Assembly (NCBI GenBank): GCA_045617125.1
Contig: JAZLIA010000056.1
Coordinates: forward strand, 4,612-36,611
DNA length: 32,000 nt
From: Clostridia bacterium
Lineage (GTDB): Bacteria; Bacillota; Clostridia; Christensenellales; Aristaeellaceae
Direction: 5' to 3'
Position 1 is the first letter of the stretch. Every line of letters starts with the position of its first letter. Below the pieces are notes generated by a model. It searched no databases. It worked only from the letters and a program-made list of their open reading frames with translations, and had not been told where the DNA came from. Below, piece by piece: positions 1 to 9,599 of this stretch. A program made the translations under genes and the position numbers.

Positions 1-1204
1 GGATAAAGCCGTTCACGATCGCACCGGCTGCCTGTTCGGAAATATCGCCGTCCCGGGCCAGGTCTTTCATCAGCTCAGCCCGGGTGATCGGGTGTTTAAG
101 AAGCTGATACAGATATGCGCCGGTTTCCGTGAGGCGCAGATGACCGCTGTAATCCCGCTGAAGCTCCGGGGACAAAGCCACCATGTTTATCTTTCCCGTA
201 CGGATCAGACGAGTCCCCTCTTTCAGGCACAGCACGGCATCCTCTGCAAAATGTTCGGGACACCGTTTGGCTGCCTTTTCCGCTTCCTCATTCATCCGGT
301 ATTCTTCCTGCATCTGCTCCGTCTTTTGCTTCGAGCTTTGCTGCTGCTGCAGATAAAGCGAATACTGCTTCTGTGCTTCCCTGATCCCCGCCTGCAAGAC
401 CCGATACTCAGGAAAATCCGCGGCATATTTCCAGAATTCATCACCGAAAGGACGCACATAGGAAAACTTCCACGGTTTTCTGCTTCCGCACCAATGCAGG
501 ATGAGCGTTTCATCCGGGAGCGCTTCTTCTTCCCCAAGGGTAAACTCTTCCAGATTGAAGCGGCGGCTTTCGCATATTCTCACCTGGCGGTAAAACGCCA
601 GGTTCAAAATATCCTGATCGCCAAGCAGCAATCTGTCGCCAAAGCCGTCCGCAATCTGACGGTAGAGATCGGGGGCCAGCTTTTCCCGCTGGGCTTTCAG
701 GTCAAACAGGAGCACACCGGCATTGAAATACACCACATCCTCCGGGAAAATGCCCTGACAGAGGCGGTTATATTTCGTTGTCTCCGAGCCAAGCTCACAG
801 CGGCACGCGGCCATCAGGTTTCCTTCCAGGTCCTGATGGTAAAATTCCTCCAGATCTCCGCGGATCACGAGATCCCCGTCCAGATACAGCACTCTTTCCA
901 CATCGGGCGGCAGAAGCTGAGCGGCAAACAGGCGAAAATAGGTCTCTCCCGTGATCCACGGACAACGCAGCGGCGGAGCACAGGGATCTTCTTCCGTGAC
1001 ATGGATCCATTCCACTTTTGCATGTCCGCTTTTTTCCGCGTCAGCGTTCAAAAGCGCCTTCGCGGTCTGATTCAGTTCGCGGAACATGACAAAAAGGCGC
1101 ACAGGACAGTTATTGTGCGCCAGAAAAGAATGAAACATGACCCTGGTGGGCATAAAATAGTCGTTGTTGACCGCAACTAACAGGTTCAACCATTCCTCTT
1201 TCAT
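1..1204 (-). CDS. GT8-family glycosyltransferase fused to a C-terminal PqqD-like RiPP recognition element (partial; C-terminus lies beyond the window start)
   Basis: Absent from the ORF track because no stop codon lies in the window. Hand translation of the minus strand from ATG 1204-1202 (GGAGGG at 1216-1211, 6 nt spacer) stays open for 401 codons to base 2. GT8 signature blocks: MKEEWLNLLVAVNNDYFMPTRVMFHSFLAHN, YFRLFAAQLLP, VLYLDGDLVIRGDL (DxD), YFNAGVLLFDL, GDQDILN, ILHWCGSRKPW. A Q/E-rich linker follows, then HLRLTETGAYLYQLLKHPITRAELMKDLARDGDISEQAAGAIVNGFI, which reads like a PqqD/RRE winged-helix domain. The + strand ORF 92..1180 is its antisense shadow. Confidence 0.8.
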   Translation of the reverse strand, partial: MKEEWLNLLVAVNNDYFMPTRVMFHSFLAHNNCPVRLFVMFRELNQTAKALLNADAEKSGHAKVEWIHVTEEDPCAPPLRCPWITGETYFRLFAAQLLPPDVERVLYLDGDLVIRGDLEEFYHQDLEGNLMAACRCELGSETTKYNRLCQGIFPEDVVYFNAGVLLFDLKAQREKLAPDLYRQIADGFGDRLLLGDQDILNLAFYRQVRICESRRFNLEEFTLGEEEALPDETLILHWCGSRKPWKFSYVRPFGDEFWKYAADFPEYRVLQAGIREAQKQYSLYLQQQQSSKQKTEQMQEEYRMNEEAEKAAKRCPEHFAEDAVLCLKEGTRLIRTGKINMVALSPELQRDYSGHLRLTETGAYLYQLLKHPITRAELMKDLARDGDISEQAAGAIVNGFI

Positions 1205-1232
1205 CAGAATCCCTCCGGTATTGATGATGTTA

Positions 1233-1265
1233 CCGCCCCGGAACGCATTCCGCTTTCCGGGGCGG
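1233..1265 (-). promoter_or_regulatory. GC-rich stem-loop between the last precursor gene and the glycosyltransferase gene (no U-tract; candidate attenuator or mRNA-processing/stability element)
   Basis: Perfect 10 bp inverted repeat, ccgccccgga (1233-1242) and tccggggcgg (1256-1265), with a 13 nt loop. It sits in the 112 nt gap between the stop at 1317 and the ATG at 1204. No T-run follows on either strand. Confidence 0.55.
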
Positions 1266-1316
1266 ATCTGACATTTCCAGCTGCTGCCTTTCTACGCCGG
1301 GATCAATGCGTTATGT

Positions 1317-1499
1317 TTACTGATCATCAAGATGACAATAATTGGACGGTATAAAACGTAACTGTTTCATTTTGTTGTTATTCGTAAAGATAGCGCCCCC
1401 GCTTACCTGCTCCAGTTCTTCTTCCGTCAGCTCCGCAAGCTTAACCTTCAATGCATGAAGTTCTTCCTTAAGGGCATCCAGTTCCTGCCTGGTTTTCAT
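1317..1499 (-). CDS. RiPP/bacteriocin-like precursor peptide P1 (60 aa; double-glycine leader 1499..1395, core AIFTNNNKMKQLRFIPSNYCHLDDQ)
   Basis: ORF track peptide MKTRQELDALKEELHALKVKLAELTEEELEQVSGG|AIFTNNN... GGAGGAA RBS at 1512-1506. The leader is near-identical to the two upstream paralogs and the core is unrelated. ELxxEELEQVSGG matches the double-glycine leader consensus. Confidence 0.8.
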   Translation of the reverse strand: MKTRQELDALKEELHALKVKLAELTEEELEQVSGGAIFTNNNKMKQLRFIPSNYCHLDDQ

Positions 1500-1517
1500 T
1501 GTTCATTCCTCCATCAA

Positions 1518-1700
1518 TCAAAGATATCTGAATTTTCCCTCTTCAACTATGCCTTTTATGTCTTTCACGCTCTTGCCCGTGAAGACAGCGCCTCCGCTCA
1601 CCTGCTCCAGTTCCTCTTCCGTCAGCTCCGCGAGCTTATCCTTCAATGCATAAAGTTCTTCCTTAAGGGCATCCAGTTCCTGCTTTGTCTGCATCATCAT
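1518..1700 (-). CDS. RiPP/bacteriocin-like precursor peptide P2 (60 aa; leader 1700..1590, core AVFTGKSVKDIKGIVEEGKFRYL)
   Basis: MMMQTKQELDALKEELYALKDKLAELTEEELEQVSGG|AVFTGKS... GGAGGAATG context directly upstream. It shares a 111 nt stretch, identical by manual comparison, with P3 that covers the leader plus AVFTG. Only 18 nt separate it from the P1 start. Confidence 0.8.
   Translation of the reverse strand: MMMQTKQELDALKEELYALKDKLAELTEEELEQVSGGAVFTGKSVKDIKGIVEEGKFRYL
1573..1683 (-). repeat. 111 nt direct repeat, copy A (leader-coding part of P2)
   Basis: The string ttgcccgtgaagacagcgcctccgctcacctgctccag...catccagttcctgc is identical base for base, by manual comparison, to 1952-2062. A diverged third copy lies at about 1393-1499 in P1, with a handful of substitutions. 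Confidence 0.9.
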
Positions 1701-1815
1701 TCCTCCATCCTGTTTTTATGGTCCATCTGCATATACGAAAATGATCCTCATGGCGGCCAGTCGGATATGAAGAATGATGATTTTTTCTTCCCGAAGGTCT
1801 TCCGCCCCGATCTTA

Positions 1816-2073
1816 TCATCTTTTTATAAACTCATTTTCATCCGTGCCCTCAAGCTTATTATTCAGCTTTCCCTTTGCATTAGGCTCGATCAGCTCATCT
1901 TCAAGATAAAGAAAACCGAGCGGGCCCGCAAGGAGATTTTTTATTCTGGTATTGCCCGTGAAGACAGCGCCTCCGCTCACCTGCTCCAGTTCCTCTTCCG
2001 TCAGCTCCGCGAGCTTATCCTTCAATGCATAAAGTTCTTCCTTAAGGGCATCCAGTTCCTGCCTGGTCTTCAT
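1816..2073 (-). CDS. RiPP/bacteriocin-like precursor peptide P3 (85 aa; leader 2073..1969, 50-aa core AVFTGNTRIKNLLAGPLGFLYLEDELIEPNAKGKLNNKLEGTDENEFIKR)
   Basis: MKTRQELDALKEELYALKDKLAELTEEELEQVSGG|AVFTGNT... AAAGGAGGAA RBS at 2090-2081. It is the first gene downstream of a near-consensus promoter at 2236-2208. Confidence 0.8.
   Translation of the reverse strand: MKTRQELDALKEELYALKDKLAELTEEELEQVSGGAVFTGNTRIKNLLAGPLGFLYLEDELIEPNAKGKLNNKLEGTDENEFIKR
1952..2062 (-). repeat. 111 nt direct repeat, copy B (leader-coding part of P3)
   Basis: Identical to 1573-1683. Identity stops 2 nt after the AVFTG codons on one side and at leader codon 4 on the other. Weaker homology, roughly 70% by eye, continues about 80 nt upstream of both genes (1701-1780 versus 2074-2150). 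Confidence 0.9.
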
Positions 2074-2207
2074 CGTTCATTCCTCCTTTAAATATCATTG
2101 TGGTCCCATGATATATACGAAGATGGTTGATAGGATGGCTGATCGGTATAAAACTTTTTTCAGGATCATGTTCTTTTCCGTTTTTCCGCACCGATCATTC
2201 CGCCTTG

Positions 2208-2236
2208 ATTATACCACTTATATTTCCCCATTGCAA
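2208..2236 (-). promoter_or_regulatory. Sigma-A type promoter driving the precursor array (-35 TTGCAA, 17 nt spacer, extended -10 TGGTATAAT)
   Basis: The minus strand reads gcaTTTGCAAtggggaaatataagtggTATAATcaagg. The -35 is at 2236-2231 and the -10 at 2213-2208. The ROK stop codon (2220-2218) lies inside the spacer. The predicted 5' UTR to the P3 ATG is about 125 nt. Confidence 0.55.
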
Positions 2237-3363
2237 ATGCCGCTCATATACCTGCGGGTCAGATAAATGCCCGCGCCGATCGCGGCAGAATCATCCGTAT
2301 ACAGGCTGGTTCTGATCCTGACCTTTTCGCAGTCGAACGGGCATTCCGCCTGCACCATCCTTTCAAGCAATTCCACATCCGAAGGGAGCATATAGCGAAG
2401 CAGATACCCGCACAGCACATATTCCGTGTCCATCAGCATGCGGATGTTGCTGATGGTCAGCGCCAGATCATGCAGATATCTATTCCACACCGCCGCAGCC
2501 TTCTTATCCCCCGCACGCAGCTTGATAAAAAAATCCCGCAGCTTTTCTCCGGCATTCCTCTGCAGGGCATAGGCGGAGCAGTACGCCTCTATGCAGCCTT
2601 TTTTTCCGCAATAGCACTTTTCGCCGCCGGGATACAGGCACATGTGCTCGATCACGCTGCTGCTCAGCTCAATGCCCTGATATACCTTTCCGTTCACAAT
2701 GACCGCGCCGCCGAAATACCGGTTCAGATACAGCAGTACGGCATCCTTCATATCCTTCTGGATCCACGATTCCGCAAGCGCGGATGCCTCCGTATCATGC
2801 ATCATGGAGCAGGGATACGGGATGCAGCGTTCAAACTTCTCCAACAGCCTTTCTCCGCTGCATTCGAGGATCCTGCCGAACAGGAGCGAACCGCCGTCCC
2901 TGGAAACCAGCCCCTGTATCGCTATAGACACGCCCAGCACCTGCCCTTTTTCCGGATGAAGCTGCAAAAGCTGGCTCTCCGTCACTTCCGCGATCCTTTC
3001 GAAATAATCGTCCGTGCAGGAAAACATCCTCTGCTCATCAAAGGATCGCAGGGGCTTTCCGTACAGATCCACCACGACCACATGAAAGTATTCTTTTTGT
3101 ACGGCAATGCCCACAGCCACTTTTTTCGCAGCGGCAAACTGATACACCCTTGCTTTTCTGCCGCCGGTGGAATGATACATCCCCGTGCGCAGGATCATTC
3201 CCTGTTCCTCCCACAGCTTCAGGTTTTGGCTCACCGTGGGAAGGCTCATTTTCAGTTCCTGCGCGATCTGCTGTTTGGAAACCCCTTCCGATCCATACAC
3301 ATATCTGAGCAGCCGCAGCGAGTTTTGCTCTCTGACATCGGCGGTGGACAGTGTCTCCCCCAT
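2218..3363 (-). CDS. ROK-family transcriptional regulator (NagC/XylR-like)
   Basis: 381 aa. N-terminal wHTH (VSKQQIAQELKMSLPTVSQNLKLWEEQGMI), a sugar-kinase-like fold, and the ROK zinc motif CYCGKKGCIEAYCS. Confidence 0.85.
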   Translation of the reverse strand: MGETLSTADVREQNSLRLLRYVYGSEGVSKQQIAQELKMSLPTVSQNLKLWEEQGMILRTGMYHSTGGRKARVYQFAAAKKVAVGIAVQKEYFHVVVVDLYGKPLRSFDEQRMFSCTDDYFERIAEVTESQLLQLHPEKGQVLGVSIAIQGLVSRDGGSLLFGRILECSGERLLEKFERCIPYPCSMMHDTEASALAESWIQKDMKDAVLLYLNRYFGGAVIVNGKVYQGIELSSSVIEHMCLYPGGEKCYCGKKGCIEAYCSAYALQRNAGEKLRDFFIKLRAGDKKAAAVWNRYLHDLALTISNIRMLMDTEYVLCGYLLRYMLPSDVELLERMVQAECPFDCEKVRIRTSLYTDDSAAIGAGIYLTRRYMSGICNGEI

Positions 3364-3467
3364 GCGCTACCCCATCCCTTATATCATATTCTTTGTTTAA
3401 TCTATCATATTTCTATAAGAAAGACAAGCCGTAATGACGCATCTGAAACAGAAACGCGAAATGACTC

Positions 3468-3497
3468 TTGACTTTTTCCAAATTTCAGTGATATGAT
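3468..3497 (+). promoter_or_regulatory. Candidate sigma-A promoter for the dehydrogenase pair (-35 TTGACT, 18 nt spacer, extended -10 TGATATGAT)
   Basis: TTGACT at 3468-3473 and TATGAT at 3492-3497, preceded by TGA. It lies in the divergent intergenic region between the ROK gene and the first dehydrogenase. Confidence 0.45.
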
Positions 3498-3562
3498 AGT
3501 TTAGATTTGAAAAGCATTTTTACAAAAGTTCTTGCTTTGCCAGTTTGAAAGGAGACCCTATC

Positions 3563-4597
3563 ATGTTACAGCAGGTGATGACAGCCCCCGGAAAGATCCT
3601 TTTCAGAGAGATCGAAAAGCCCCAGCCCGCAGCGGACGAGGTGGTCGTCCGGATCATGAAGATCGGCGTATGCGGAAGCGACATCCATGTTTATCACGGA
3701 AAACACCCCTTCACCAAATATCCGGTCACGCAGGGACACGAAGTTTCCGGAAAGATCGAAGCTCTCGGCAGCGCCGTCACCGAATTCCGGATCGGTCAGA
3801 AGGTCACGATCGAGCCTCAGGTCTATTGCGGAAAGTGCTATCCCTGCACGCACGGCAAGTATAACCTGTGTGAGGAGCTGAAAGTGATGGGGTTCCAGAC
3901 CACCGGCACCGCCAGCAAATATTTCGCCGTGAAAGCGTCCAAGGTGACGCCTCTTCCTGAAAGCATGACCTATAACGAAGGCGCGATGATCGAGCCACTG
4001 GCCGTCACGGTCCACGCAGCCAAACGGGCCGGCGACATAAAGGACAAAAAGATCGCCGTGCTGGGCGCGGGCCCCATCGGCATCCTGCTTGCGCAAAGCG
4101 TAAAAGCGCTCGGGGCAAAGGAAGTGCTGATCACCGATATCAGCCCCTTCCGTCTGCAGCTTGCGAAGACCTGCGGAGCCGATCATGCCGTGAACACGCG
4201 TGAAGAGGATTTCGGCGAGGCGCTCATCCGCTGCTTCGGTCCTGACAAGGCTGATGTGATCTACGACTGTGCGGGCAACGACATCACCATCAACCAGGCG
4301 ATCCGCTGTGCAAGAAAGGGCAGCACCATTATTCTGGTCGCAGTCTTCGCAGACATGGCAAAAGCGGACATGGCCGTGCTCAACGATCATGAGCTGGACC
4401 TGAACAGCAGCATGATGTACCGCCATGAAGACTATGTTGAAGCCATCCGCCTTGTTAATGAGGGCAGGATCCAGCTGAAACCGCTTATGAGCAAGCACTT
4501 TGCATTTGCTGATTACGCGAAGGCATATCAGTTTATCGACGCTAACCGTGAAACCACCATGAAGGTGCTCATCGACGTTGATGACAGTGAAGAATAA
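3563..4597 (+). CDS. Zn-dependent alcohol/polyol dehydrogenase (MDR family, sorbitol/threonine dehydrogenase-like)
   Basis: GVCGSDIHVYHG, GHEVSGKIEALG, structural-Zn lobe CGKCYPCTHGKYNLC, NAD fold VLGAGPIGIL. I prefer ATG 3563 (AAAGGAG 8 nt upstream) over the TTG at 3545 used by the track. Confidence 0.85.
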   Translation: MLQQVMTAPGKILFREIEKPQPAADEVVVRIMKIGVCGSDIHVYHGKHPFTKYPVTQGHEVSGKIEALGSAVTEFRIGQKVTIEPQVYCGKCYPCTHGKYNLCEELKVMGFQTTGTASKYFAVKASKVTPLPESMTYNEGAMIEPLAVTVHAAKRAGDIKDKKIAVLGAGPIGILLAQSVKALGAKEVLITDISPFRLQLAKTCGADHAVNTREEDFGEALIRCFGPDKADVIYDCAGNDITINQAIRCARKGSTIILVAVFADMAKADMAVLNDHELDLNSSMMYRHEDYVEAIRLVNEGRIQLKPLMSKHFAFADYAKAYQFIDANRETTMKVLIDVDDSEE

Positions 4598-4656
4598 AAA
4601 TAAATCAGCAGGACCGCAAGACCGCATGCAAACGCATGCTGAAAGGAGATGCTCCC

Positions 4657-5685
4657 ATGAGAAGCTGCTACTATCTTGGAAACAGGCAGTTTGAGGTGCG
4701 TGAAGAGCCCGTTCCTGCCCCCGGGGCGGAGGAAGTGCTGGTAAAGGTGGATTCCTGCGGCGTCTGCGGCACTGATGTTCACATTTATCACGGCGATAAG
4801 GGCTCTGCCGAGGTGATCCCTCCCGTGGTGCTGGGACACGAGTTTGCCGGCACGGTAGTGAGCGTAGGAAGCCGGGTAACCGGCTTGAAAGCAGGGGATC
4901 ATGTGACGGTGGATCCCAACATCTACTGCGGAAAATGTCACTATTGCCGCATCGGCAAAAAACAGCTGTGTGAAAATCTGTACGCCATCGGCGTCAACCG
5001 CAACGGAGGCTTCGCGGAATACTGCGTTGCCCCGGAGACCCAGTGTTACCTTCTTTCCCCCGAAGTGCCCCTCGAATACGGCGCCATGGCAGAACCCCTC
5101 GCCTGCTGCCTGCACGGTATCGAACAGGCAGGCATCTGCCCCGGCAGCACGGTATGCGTGCTGGGCGGCGGCGCGATCGGCCTGATCATGGTGCAATTGG
5201 CCCGCCTTTCCGGCGCGTCAAAAGTGATTCTGAGCGAACCGGTGGAAATGCGAAGGAACATCGGGCTTGAATTGGGAGCCGACGCGGCGGTCGATCCCAT
5301 CCATGAGGATCTGCCCGCCCGTGTGCGGGAATTGCTCGGCACGCCAGGCCCCGATGTGGTGATCGAGTGCGTCGGCAACCCTGCCGCTGCACAGCAGGCC
5401 CTGAGCATCGTAAAGCGTGGCACCGCCGTGCTCCTGTTCAGCGTGCCCCAGGCCGGGACCTCGGTTTCCCTTTCGCTGGACGATGTGTACCACAAGGAGC
5501 TGAAGATCACAGGCTCCCTCATCAATCCCGACACTCATGGCCGTGCCGCCGCGCTGATCAACAGCGGATGCATCCGCCTGGACTGCATCGAGACGCATAC
5601 TTTTCCCATTGAAAAGCTGGAAGACGCGATTTTGATGCAGCAAAGCAACGAATCGCTGAAGGTTCTGGTAAAACCCGGCCTCTGA
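4657..5685 (+). CDS. Zn-dependent alcohol/polyol dehydrogenase (MDR family), paralog of the preceding gene
   Basis: GVCGTDVHIYHG, GHEFAGTVVSVG, CGKCHYCRIGKKQLC, VLGGGAIGLI. ATG 4657 has GAAAGGAG upstream; the track start at 4636 lacks an RBS. Confidence 0.85.
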   Translation: MRSCYYLGNRQFEVREEPVPAPGAEEVLVKVDSCGVCGTDVHIYHGDKGSAEVIPPVVLGHEFAGTVVSVGSRVTGLKAGDHVTVDPNIYCGKCHYCRIGKKQLCENLYAIGVNRNGGFAEYCVAPETQCYLLSPEVPLEYGAMAEPLACCLHGIEQAGICPGSTVCVLGGGAIGLIMVQLARLSGASKVILSEPVEMRRNIGLELGADAAVDPIHEDLPARVRELLGTPGPDVVIECVGNPAAAQQALSIVKRGTAVLLFSVPQAGTSVSLSLDDVYHKELKITGSLINPDTHGRAAALINSGCIRLDCIETHTFPIEKLEDAILMQQSNESLKVLVKPGL

Positions 5686-8327: not shown

Positions 8328-9599
8328 CTACGCATTCAGCCAGTTTTTCCTGTGATAATCTTCCGCCTCAAAGCCTTCTTTATCGATCACGGTATACGGA
8401 AAGGATAAGTCTTTCAAAGCATCCAGAAAAAAGGAAAAAGCCTCATCCGTTTTCAATATATTGCTAAGACTCAATATGCATTTGTCCTTTATACAATAGC
8501 TGACCAGGTAAAGCCCGGTTGCTCCTCTTGCACCGCAGTAAGTATCAAAATTCTCTATATACGGAGCAATATCTCCTAAGTTCAGCACTCTCTGATAGGT
8601 CAGCGTCGGCGTAGAATTGCGTCCGACGGCATAAGCGGTTTTGATATCTTCGATGGTATCGGCTTGCCGCACAATGCACTCAAAATCGGTTTTTTTCTTT
8701 TCCATCACCTGAAGCAGGTATTCTTCCGATATCTGCAGCTTCAGCATTTCTTTCAAACAGCTTAACTGCCGGGCCAACGGCATATTCTGAAATGTCATGG
8801 GATAAACGAATCTGGCATCGGTACAGCAATTCTGCAAGGTGTCCTTACAGCCGAGTATGATGCGCATATCGACGGGGCAATTGACTATAAAAGGCCTGTC
8901 TTCGGAGGGATACAATTTCCGTATCGTTCGGATCAGGATCATCGCCAGCACAGAGGAAACGCTGCTTTGGGCTTCTGTGCTGAGCGACAGGATCTCTCTT
9001 GCGGGAATATAAACACGCAGCCTGCGGGATCGCACTCCAATCTTTTCTTTCTCAAAGAAAAAGCCGTCAGAGAGGGGCATGGAATGCTTCTCATCCACAG
9101 AAACGGCATATCGATAAGGATTTACATATTCATTCGCACCCGGTTTGCTGCCAGGGCACAGTTCTCCCGGAACATGCAATTCTTTTCCCGTTGCTCTGCG
9201 AAGGTATTCCGCTGCCAGTGACAGTGTAAAACGAACGGCTCCTACCGCATCCGTCAGTGCATGATGGATAGAAACATATACCGTATCGCCGCCGTACGCT
9301 ATCAGTAAAAGGAAACCGCAGTTCCTTTCATCGTTGAAAAGTACGTAGCCTTCATTTTGAAGAACGGGAAAAGTATCTTTCGTCTGCCTCAAAGCATAGA
9401 TGCCGTTTCTGATCTCCCTCTTTCTGATAAAATACGGGCAGCGTTCCGCCATCGCATCTGCAGCGGCGCGAAGATGTGCGGAGCTGATCATTTCTTTTGT
9501 GGAAAAGCATTGGAAAATATGCACCGTTTCGTCTTCATAATACAGGAATCTGTCACCCGGAGACGGGACAGGATCATTGATCAAATGAGATTTATTCAT
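8328..9599 (-). CDS. Stand-alone condensation-domain-like / HHxxxD acyltransferase superfamily protein (function unknown)
   Basis: 423 aa, the size of one NRPS C-domain or PapA5/WS-DGAT-type enzyme. Contains IHHALTDAVG (residues 111-120, coordinates 9269-9240), resembling the HHxxxDG catalytic motif. GGAGAA RBS. The gene and its flanks are visibly more AT-rich than the neighbours. Confidence 0.5.
   Translation of the reverse strand: MNKSHLINDPVPSPGDRFLYYEDETVHIFQCFSTKEMISSAHLRAAADAMAERCPYFIRKREIRNGIYALRQTKDTFPVLQNEGYVLFNDERNCGFLLLIAYGGDTVYVSIHHALTDAVGAVRFTLSLAAEYLRRATGKELHVPGELCPGSKPGANEYVNPYRYAVSVDEKHSMPLSDGFFFEKEKIGVRSRRLRVYIPAREILSLSTEAQSSVSSVLAMILIRTIRKLYPSEDRPFIVNCPVDMRIILGCKDTLQNCCTDARFVYPMTFQNMPLARQLSCLKEMLKLQISEEYLLQVMEKKKTDFECIVRQADTIEDIKTAYAVGRNSTPTLTYQRVLNLGDIAPYIENFDTYCGARGATGLYLVSYCIKDKCILSLSNILKTDEAFSFFLDALKDLSFPYTVIDKEGFEAEDYHRKNWLNA

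Follow-up and report, generated by a model that had tools for sequence, protein, structure and literature searches.

The window, a 32,000-nucleotide stretch of DNA from a Clostridia bacterium (assembly GCA_045617125.1, contig JAZLIA010000056.1, positions 4,612 to 36,611), carries on its minus strand three small tandem open reading frames (ORFs), arranged head to tail in the order P3–P2–P1 and followed by a gene coding for a family 8 glycosyltransferase (GT8) fused to a C-terminal recognition element (RRE) of the kind used by ribosomally synthesised, post-translationally modified peptides (RiPPs). We propose, with a probability of about 0.55, that P1–P3, members of a generic family of double-glycine (GG) exporter cargo peptides, have been recruited here as substrates and are glycosylated by the downstream GT8-RRE enzyme. 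The gene arrangement, the family membership of the peptides, the domain identities and the association of such enzymes with GG-leader peptides were all observed directly.

Each of the genes P1, P2 and P3 is preceded by a GGAGG sequence (Table 1). For P2, whose ORF reads MMMQTKQ from its first ATG, the third ATG (1694) is the more likely start because of its spacing from the ribosome-binding site (RBS); the resulting 58-aa product agrees with the 58-aa database entry P0001. Chance ORFs were ruled out by the RBS on each gene, by family-wide purifying selection on the leader and by the existence of thousands of homologues. The GT8-RRE gene starts 112 nt downstream of P1, is co-oriented with it and continues past the start of the window. 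No canonical terminator was called between the peptide genes and the enzyme gene. The 112-nt spacer folds with a minimum free energy of -39.4 kcal/mol (z = -2.2 against shuffles) and its hairpin lacks a U-tract; the fold of the P3–P2 spacer was no better than that of shuffles. An orthologous locus, L008, has kept the P1/GT8-RRE spacer with most of its hairpin. The hairpin may be an attenuator or an mRNA-stabilising element and might set the ratio of peptide to enzyme transcripts.

Table 1 Features of the precursor locus in the window and second-type peptide genes at related loci
Feature	Position	Strand	Details
P3 precursor, 85 aa	1816-2073	-	leader 1969-2073 MKTRQELDALKEELYALKDKLAELTEEELEQVSGG; 50-residue core 1819-1968 AVFTGNTRIKNLLAGPLGFLYLEDELIEPNAKGKLNNKLEGTDENEFIKR; AVFTG 1954-1968
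P2 precursor, 60 aa from first ATG	1518-1700	-	leader ...QTKQELDALKEELYALKDKLAELTEEELEQVSGG; core 1521-1589 AVFTGKSVKDIKGIVEEGKFRYL; AVFTG 1575-1589
P1 precursor, 60 aa	1317-1499	-	leader 1395-1499 MKTRQELDALKEELHALKVKLAELTEEELEQVSGG; core 1320-1394 AIFTNNNKMKQLRFIPSNYCHLDDQ; AIFTN 1380-1394
Stem-loop in the 112-nt P1/GT8-RRE spacer	1233-1265	-	CCGCCCCGGAA ... UUCCGGGGCGG; GC-rich, 11-bp stem, stable
GT8 glycosyltransferase with C-terminal PqqD-type RRE	1-1204	-	first 401 of 415 residues in the window; full protein P0100
Sigma-70-like promoter match	2208-2237	-	TTGCAA, 17-nt spacer, TATAAT, extended TG
ROK-family regulator	3363-2218	-	upstream of the precursor genes
Second-type peptide gene, L012	2223-2567
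Second-type peptide gene, L013	97-447
Second-type peptide gene, L010	3842-4201
Second-type peptide gene, L009	1237-1464

The enzyme combines a catalytic domain with a putative peptide-binding one. More specifically, the GT8 domain covers approximately residues 8–260 of P0100 (Pfam Glyco_transf_8, PF01501, 5.7e-32) and contains the motifs YLDGD and HWCGSRKPW; it is followed by a predicted helical linker (~265–310) and by the RRE (~320–415). Sequence matches of the GT8 domain in the PDB were 3tzt (1.2e-20), LgtC (~4-7e-15) and GlyE. The full-length protein of 415 aa scored 24.8 bits with the PqqD model, against a cut-off of 23.4. AlphaFold2 returned a beta-beta-beta-alpha-alpha-alpha topology for residues 320–415, with a predicted local distance difference test (pLDDT) score of 72–93, and Foldseek placed this region closest to TbiB1, lasso B1 and PqqD (target-normalised template modelling scores of 0.79, 0.77 and 0.75, respectively). 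As modelled, the C-terminal domain is a true RRE whose closest structural relatives are of the lasso type. The AlphaFold2 model of the full enzyme was poor in its GT8 part (mean pLDDT 57.7, much of the domain below 50), so fold-level confirmation of the GT8 domain is weak and the RRE part alone was used.

GT8-RRE fusions are rare, amounting to 7 clusters among 5.8 billion. The relatives that aligned over at least 92% of the query were P0101 (88–89% identical) and P0102–P0106 (45–49%), with no others, and precomputed Pfam annotations include PqqD for four of these six proteins. The LDGD and HxxGxxKPW motifs are conserved in all seven homologues, except that P0105 reads LDCD. A scan of the GTDB species representatives with a GT8-RRE fragment gave no confirmed relative. 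Ahead of the gene for the nearest non-fused GT8, P0107 (41% identity), stands one for a discrete PqqD protein, a homologue of the fused RRE (27% identity, E = 5e-6); the locus is RiPP-like, with an NTP_transf_5 protein, an ATP-binding cassette (ABC) transporter, a GT2 and a small peptide containing YxxP. The occurrence of a discrete PqqD protein next to a non-fused GT8 in such a cluster implies that GT8 and RRE form an evolutionary module in peptide tailoring.

Starting from the enzyme, the link to GG-leader peptides is strong: a co-oriented GG-leader peptide gene lies directly upstream of the GT8-RRE gene in all six distinct loci that were recovered (the window, L008, L009, L010/L011, L012 and L013/L014). 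The helical leader family of the window was found in three of the six. In L008, which encodes P0101, the upstream peptide reads ...KTKQELDALREEFHALRNKLAELTEEELEQVSGG and then continues into the core VGIRKDDLSNINGLRKRDDGSLKIEES; L009 encodes two intact helix-leader peptides, one frameshifted copy and a fourth peptide with a different leader. Only a second, rare leader type, K(V/K)LNEV(V/I)(N/D)G..DTENLMVEVNEL.D.E.E.V(A/V)GG, was present in L010/L011, L012 and L013/L014. The enzymes fall into two clades, A (window and L008) and B (the other four loci), and in the four clade-B loci the second-type gene always stands immediately before GT8-RRE; in L009 the two genes overlap at the start of GT8-RRE, and in L013 they abut. 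The cores of the second type are very Ser-rich, for example VSGIMSSQSSNLSPSSYSSQSSYSSQSS, with SSQSSYSSQSS-like repeats, a composition that points to O-glycosylation chemistry. A homologue search with the second leader type gave no candidates. As an aside, the second-type precursor looks like a miniature serine-rich-repeat glycopeptide.

The types of leader found directly upstream thus differ between the two clades. The RREs of clades A and B share 34–39% identity and their GT8 domains 52–55%, and this greater divergence of the RRE would fit a change in leader specificity, a possible reading of the comparison.

The leaders of the window peptides are 35 residues long and follow the pattern MKTRQELDALKEEL(Y/H)ALK(D/V)KLAELTEEELEQVSGG, with a canonical double-glycine end. 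A first-pass annotation of this DNA had assigned L, E, L and V to positions -12, -8, -7 and -4 relative to the GG at -2/-1; counting confirms these positions and adds a Leu at -15. P1–P3 accordingly carry everything expected of a double-glycine leader sequence (GG; hydrophobic residues at -4, -7, -12 and -15; an acidic residue near -8), and all three exceed the curated cut-off of 15.7 bits for TIGR01847 'bacteriocin_sig' (16.8, 17.7 and 17.9 bits for P1, P2 and P3). The same annotation had described the leader as bipartite, with an amphipathic, heptad-like N-terminal extension of 20 residues ahead of the GG motif. Both a helix and a GG motif are indeed predicted or present. Leu residues at -29, -26, -22, -19, -15 and -12 are spaced 3-4-3-4-3, like the a/d positions of heptads in a leucine zipper. 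The hydrophobic moment of the helix, 0.31, compares with 0.16 +/- 0.08 in shuffles (4.4% of which attain 0.31), and the AlphaFold2 model of P3, based on a 94-sequence alignment, has a single continuous helix over residues 4–30 with disorder beyond (pLDDT 76–81 over residues 1–20). The segment quoted was, however, 18 residues long, and since the helix runs uninterrupted into the motif, the 'N-extension' is a continuation of the amphipathic helix usual in double-glycine leaders rather than a separate module.

This leader belongs to a large family. A search with P2 retrieved 99 peptides, all of which read MKTKEELNALKEEVE(T/A)(L/V)(N/S)(K/R)KL(A/H)ELTEEELEQVSGG and then turn into unrelated sequence. 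The profile search for family members that the first-pass annotation had suggested was run against 1.84 billion representatives with a leader profile built from 94 of these peptides; it recovered 4,117 clusters with E<=1e-3, and 2,445 when the threshold was E<=1e-10. Among the 135 best new profile matches, nearly every one of the 35 leader positions was more than 90% identical and the cores shared nothing, giving a common anatomy in which a near-invariant leader runs into the LTEEELEQVSGG cleavage motif and is followed by a hypervariable, cassette-like core. The codon-position entropy of 66 distinct leader-coding DNAs was 0.43, 0.29 and 1.10 bits for first, second and third positions, respectively. 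This free variation of third positions places the whole leader, N-terminal helix included, under selection at the protein level, and it ruled out conservation at the DNA level, as a recombination site or an RNA element. Pfam and NCBIfam hold no model for the leader family beyond the generic GG motif, and the leader sequence fragments that were tried did not occur in the searchable literature.

Scanning GTDB species genomes with the leader gave 40 loci, all in metagenome-assembled genomes (MAGs) and often several per genome, which were examined up to 10 kb on each side and over much less on short contigs. The hosts are Lachnospiraceae, Oscillospiraceae, Anaerovoracaceae, Ca. Limivicinus and other Clostridia; some of the MAGs come explicitly from horse faeces, and several genus names are typical of animal guts. 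Arrays contain 1–10 genes. No recurrent partner emerged among 94 neighbouring proteins from 27 loci, in which no family appeared more than four times and no RiPP-tailoring enzyme was found; likewise, no GT8, RRE or exporter was found at the metagenomic loci L001–L007. A complete exporter consisting of a C39 peptidase and an ABC transporter was encoded in cis at one of the 40 loci (L053, 7 kb away). Overall, the leader is a generic feature of its family, with the look of a secretion leader processed in trans, and was not built for the GT8-RRE enzyme.

The locus with the exporter deserves a remark of its own. In L053 (10001–19326; Lachnospiraceae, horse-faeces MAG), family peptides are followed by genes for a MurT-like ligase, a GT2, an ABC transporter, a transglycosylase and the C39-ABC exporter, which would make L053 a possible second setting, based on GT2, in which peptides of the leader family are tailored.

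The first-pass annotation had stated that its model would be refuted if leader homologues in other genomes were not associated with GT8 genes. Seen from the leader side this is largely the case, with a GT8-RRE at one of the 40 leader-family loci, no recurrent partner, and at least 2,445 leader clusters set against 7 enzyme clusters, whereas the association seen from the enzyme side stands. In a precursor, the portion that is conserved can be a generic export tag that a rare tailoring enzyme has borrowed, and an association of this kind therefore needs testing both from the peptides and from the enzyme.

Several observations weigh against glycosylation of P1–P3 by the GT8-RRE enzyme. Within the DNA examined, a GT8-RRE homologue was present at only one of the 40 leader-family loci (L051, the L009 contig) and absent from 39; the leader evidently works elsewhere without this enzyme, so co-location in the window could be secondary. 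No C39 exporter was detected in the window, which covers all but about 5 kb of its 36,959-nt contig, either by a Pfam scan of its ORFs or by tblastn with a C39 domain, and none lies within 1.9 kb downstream of the GT8-RRE gene of L008, where a cupin-nitroreductase and a GH42 protein are encoded instead. The contigs carrying the other GT8-RRE genes are short (2.5–5.5 kb) and show little of the wider context. The window cores are poor in Ser/Thr (6–9%), unlike the Ser-rich cores of the other GT8-RRE clade. The L008 core contains no Thr and has nothing in common with that of P1, and no acceptor context is therefore conserved. Lastly, the usual reaction of GT8 enzymes, glycogenin excepted, is the extension of a sugar already in place, and the literature checked held no RiPP precedent for the direct glycosylation of a peptide by a GT8.

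Some of these points would also be explained if P1–P3 were unmodified exporter cargo, for instance class II bacteriocin-like peptides, lying beside GT8-RRE by circumstance, the dedicated substrate being a second-type Ser-rich precursor that has been lost or is encoded elsewhere and the enzyme of the window being idle or acting on another target. The 39 leader-family loci with neither GT8-RRE nor a recurrent modifying enzyme fit this explanation, as do the composition of the window cores and the order of genes in clade B, where the enzyme is immediately preceded by the second-type gene and the helix-leader peptides of L009 lie further upstream. It is less easily reconciled with the two clade-A loci, both of which have a helix-leader peptide immediately upstream of the enzyme and no second-type peptide, with the conservation of spacer, hairpin and RBS between the window and L008, or with an RRE more diverged than the GT8 domain between clades, as expected if leader specificity had changed. 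Moreover, with only a few arrays per genome, it is very unlikely that three of six independent enzyme loci would lie beside one by chance. We consider unmodified cargo, the main rival, unlikely, although it is an explanation to be kept in view.

Recruitment of the peptides as substrates raises the question of which part of the precursor is recognised and which residue is modified. The first-pass annotation held the N-terminal segment to be a plausible RRE docking helix and the Thr of A(V/I)FT(G/N) to be a candidate site of O-glycosylation; taken as a specific model, the helix docks onto the RRE and that Thr is the single site. The motif does follow the GG directly in P1, P2 and P3, and in that sense its description as invariant was right. 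Its conservation nevertheless says little: P2 (1573–1683) and P3 (1952–2062) are identical on the minus strand over 111 nt, between leader codon 4-5 and the second base of core codon 6, and similarity vanishes past the end of this tract, which has the appearance of a duplication or gene conversion. AVFTG is thus the tail of the duplicated or gene-converted block. Between P1 and P2/P3 there are 6 differences in the 105 leader nucleotides and 2 in the 12 nucleotides of the first four core codons; the motif is thus conserved no better than the leader, and the three peptides are paralogues, not three independent observations.

The comparison with L008 leads to the same point. When the two loci were aligned from the start of P1 to the start of GT8, identity was ~88% in the leader, collapsed at the first codon after GG and resumed at the stop codon, continuing through the spacer, the hairpin and the RBS. 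GG is therefore the exact boundary of homology between the orthologues, which do not have AVFT in common; judging by this alignment, the core at the orthologous position is a replaced cassette. AVFTG itself is confined to the window locus. The further statement that Thr4 is the only hydroxyl residue shared by all cores holds for the alignable position only, since every core has one Tyr (Y19, Y22 and Y21 in P1, P2 and P3) and at least one Ser/Thr besides Thr4.

Another aspect of the distribution speaks for Thr4. FT(G/N) occurs in 4 of 215 distinct family cores (7,158 residues), namely those of the three window peptides and an independent L009 peptide with DWSGFTGKQN; all four belong to GT8-RRE loci and carry the motif within the first eight core residues, and it is absent from the other ~211. 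The chance of an independent FT(G/N) in one of three other enzyme-linked cores is ~0.01–0.05, a rough and post hoc estimate. This restriction would lend Thr4 weak but independent support, and we treat it as a lead, not as evidence. Outside the window, the core closest to AVFTG is that of P0354 (VFTRGYN...), encoded on the 733-nt contig L059 from sample ERZ27247234, which is also the source of L013.

Docking of the helix onto the RRE is not supported. The helix is conserved across thousands of peptides, no RRE was found near it at the sampled loci, and since 39 of the 40 leader-family loci lack GT8-RRE it is not a docking element specific to this enzyme. The structural neighbours of the RRE are of the lasso type, and lasso-type RREs bind short, extended YxxP-type strands, not long helices. 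The divergence of the clade-A RRE from that of clade B counts in favour of the model. Weighing this and the FT(G/N) distribution against the L008 orthologue, the paralogy of the motif and the additional Tyr, Ser and Thr residues, we regard helix docking combined with a single site at Thr4 as distinctly unlikely.

For glycosylation of P1–P3 by GT8-RRE we envisage a sequence of events in which binding, sugar transfer, choice of acceptor, cleavage and export are all inferred. The RRE would hold the precursor by a segment of the leader or of the leader–core junction. Because RREs bind extended strands, the long helix is no obvious ligand and the junction QVSGGAVFT is at least as plausible. The GT8 domain, predicted to adopt a retaining GT-A fold with its DxD and HxxGxxKPW motifs intact, would then move a sugar from a uridine diphosphate (UDP)-sugar to a core side chain; Ser/Thr would be the most likely acceptors, with the Thr of FT(G/N) as one candidate, and Tyr would also be possible. 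Finally, cleavage after GG and export of the product would fall to a C39-peptidase ABC exporter whose gene lies elsewhere in the genome.

A bolder form of this proposal can be put forward tentatively, as possible rather than probable: GT8-RRE would found an undescribed class of O-glycosylated linear ribosomal peptides in gut Clostridia, having taken over a generic and hugely expanded secretion leader that occurs on at least 2,445 distinct cores, its RRE re-specialised to the leader or the leader–core junction and the Thr of FT(G/N) serving as acceptor. In a broader version, drawn by analogy with the prochlorosins, the leader family would be an unrecognised trans-acting system for peptide secretion and diversification.

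The replacement of cores between conserved flanks also resembles allelic variation in pheromone genes, and P1–P3 might be signalling pheromones of the ComC/BlpC type whose hypervariable cores represent diversified signals. Weak, sub-threshold similarity to ComC/pheromone models through the GG region is in line with this idea. The window, however, contains neither an adjacent histidine kinase/response regulator pair nor an exporter, and family arrays hold up to ten different cores, among them Zn-ribbon-like cargo as well as an NlpC/P60 protein, which a general secretion tag would explain better. A role in signalling thus appears highly improbable.

Some members of the leader family are of interest in themselves. 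Many cores are Zn-ribbon-like with CxxC...CxxC (P0036, P0057, P0059, P0074, P0075, P0091, P0092 and L025/L027 among them) and others are Pro-rich or strongly acidic, a diversity of cargo atypical of membrane-active bacteriocins. In the region 9285–9692 of L001, an NlpC/P60 protein with a short GG leader (MENRKELSEKELEQIVGG) is encoded inside an array of family peptides; export by GG leaders is therefore not limited to small peptides here. Ten family genes occupy positions 464–5400 of a single 7.4-kb contig, L034, where conserved leader-coding repeats of ~105 nt alternate with unrelated core cassettes, an arrangement expected to promote recombination and the shuffling of cassettes. The family is otherwise Clostridial, but four loci (L048, L050, L052 and L057) come from an assembly labelled Sphaerochaetaceae, a spirochaete family, which indicates horizontal transfer or a binning error.

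Comparison with known systems allowed us to place the window locus. The leaders of class II bacteriocins and competence pheromones, which are C39 substrates (TIGR01847/PF03412), share with it the GG, the hydrophobic residues at -4/-7/-12/-15 and the amphipathic helix. The window leader differs in its length of 35 residues, in an a/d heptad of Leu that extends to -29 and in being near-invariant over thousands of cores, and the genes of its family are mostly scattered, with no adjacent exporter or immunity gene. The precursors with Nif11 and nitrile hydratase (NHLP) leaders, of the prochlorosin type, likewise have a long conserved leader ending in GG, hypervariable cores, scattered genes and processing in trans (Haft et al. 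2010, PMC2887384). Those leaders are unrelated in sequence to that of the window family, which is predicted as a single 27-residue helix, and no lanthionine synthetase or common modifying enzyme is found near the genes of the family.

Glycocins (sublancin, glycocin F, thurandacin, enterocin F4-9 and pallidocin) resemble the window system in their GG-type leader, an adjacent glycosyltransferase and the expected export by a C39 protein. Their transferases belong to GT2 and have no RRE (Sun et al. 2025, PMC11912497), whereas the window enzyme is a GT8 with a fused RRE and gave no GT2 match. The cores of glycocins are rich in Cys and fold, with two nested disulfides, into a helix-loop-helix hairpin whose loop or tail bears the S- or O-linked sugar on a Cys, Ser or Thr; P2 and P3 contain no Cys and P1 contains one, and the P3 core is predicted to be disordered (AlphaFold2). 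As the first-pass annotation had argued from the Cys content, the absence of Cys pairs from every window core speaks against the glycocin type, which this absence and the wrong transferase family together ruled out.

Paeninodin-type lasso peptides and linear polyphosphorylated peptides (LPPs; Popov et al. 2026, PMC13381572) are linked to the window enzyme through the P0107 cluster, with its PqqD protein, NTP_transf_5 protein, ABC transporter and YxxP precursor, and such peptides have been predicted to be phosphorylated and glycosylated in the same study. The window leader differs in being of the GG type with no YxxP or WxxP, and its locus lacks a kinase, a nucleotidyltransferase, a signal-peptidase-like protease and a lasso cyclase. 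A RiPP-like cluster on contigs L015–L018 (for example L015 1481–8059), with 332 member sequences, was also noted. It encodes a 35-aa peptide, MQEYKKPEAEVVIFETVDVVATSGSANPLPPTSNP, containing YxxP, together with a discrete PqqD protein, a GT8 fused to a P-loop 'ScmC' domain, an NTP_transf_5 protein, an ABC transporter and a GT2, and it resembles the clusters for phosphorylated and glycosylated peptides described by Popov et al. 2026 (PMC13381572). Nothing relevant on 'ScmC' was found in the literature.

As regards the catalytic domain, the likeness is to LgtC and to the GT8 enzymes of serine-rich repeat adhesins, for instance GlyE from S. pneumoniae (PDB 5gvv); Ser-rich cores in the sister clade recall the serine-rich repeat substrates of the latter. 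GlyE and LgtC have no RRE and extend a sugar that another transferase has attached, whereas GT8-RRE is the sole transferase in its locus, so that the peptide itself would have to be its direct acceptor. Few glycosyltransferases are known from RiPP pathways, most being the GT2 enzymes of glycocins, and a 2025 survey of RiPP glycosyltransferases lists no GT8 (PMC11912497). Fusions of an RRE with a glycosyltransferase have been mentioned only in silico, the one Pfam family named being PF00535 (GT2); PF01501 is absent from one supplementary file of PMC12710340. A literature search combining GT family 8 with RiPP precursor terms found nothing specific. What may be new here is leader-guided peptide glycosylation by a new GT8-RRE architecture that uses a large uncharacterised leader family. 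If this is true, RiPP pathways would gain a new enzyme family in the form of a retaining GT8 fused to an RRE, probably with a new linkage stereochemistry, and a leader-guided tool for peptide glycoengineering would become available. The leader family in turn represents a large unstudied pool of thousands of secreted peptides from gut Clostridia, with processing in trans and cassette-like diversification of cores.

Turning to the surroundings of the operon, the sigma-70-like match (Table 1) is a candidate promoter for P3-P2-P1-GT8 on the strength of its consensus and lies 135 nt upstream of the P3 start. The remaining genes of the window concern sugar and nicotinamide adenine dinucleotide (NAD) metabolism and unrelated ABC transporters. 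One further ORF of 423 aa (8328–9599, minus strand), with no match in Pfam, contains an HHxxxD-type motif (VSIHHALTDAVG) that recalls the active sites of condensation and acyltransferase domains.

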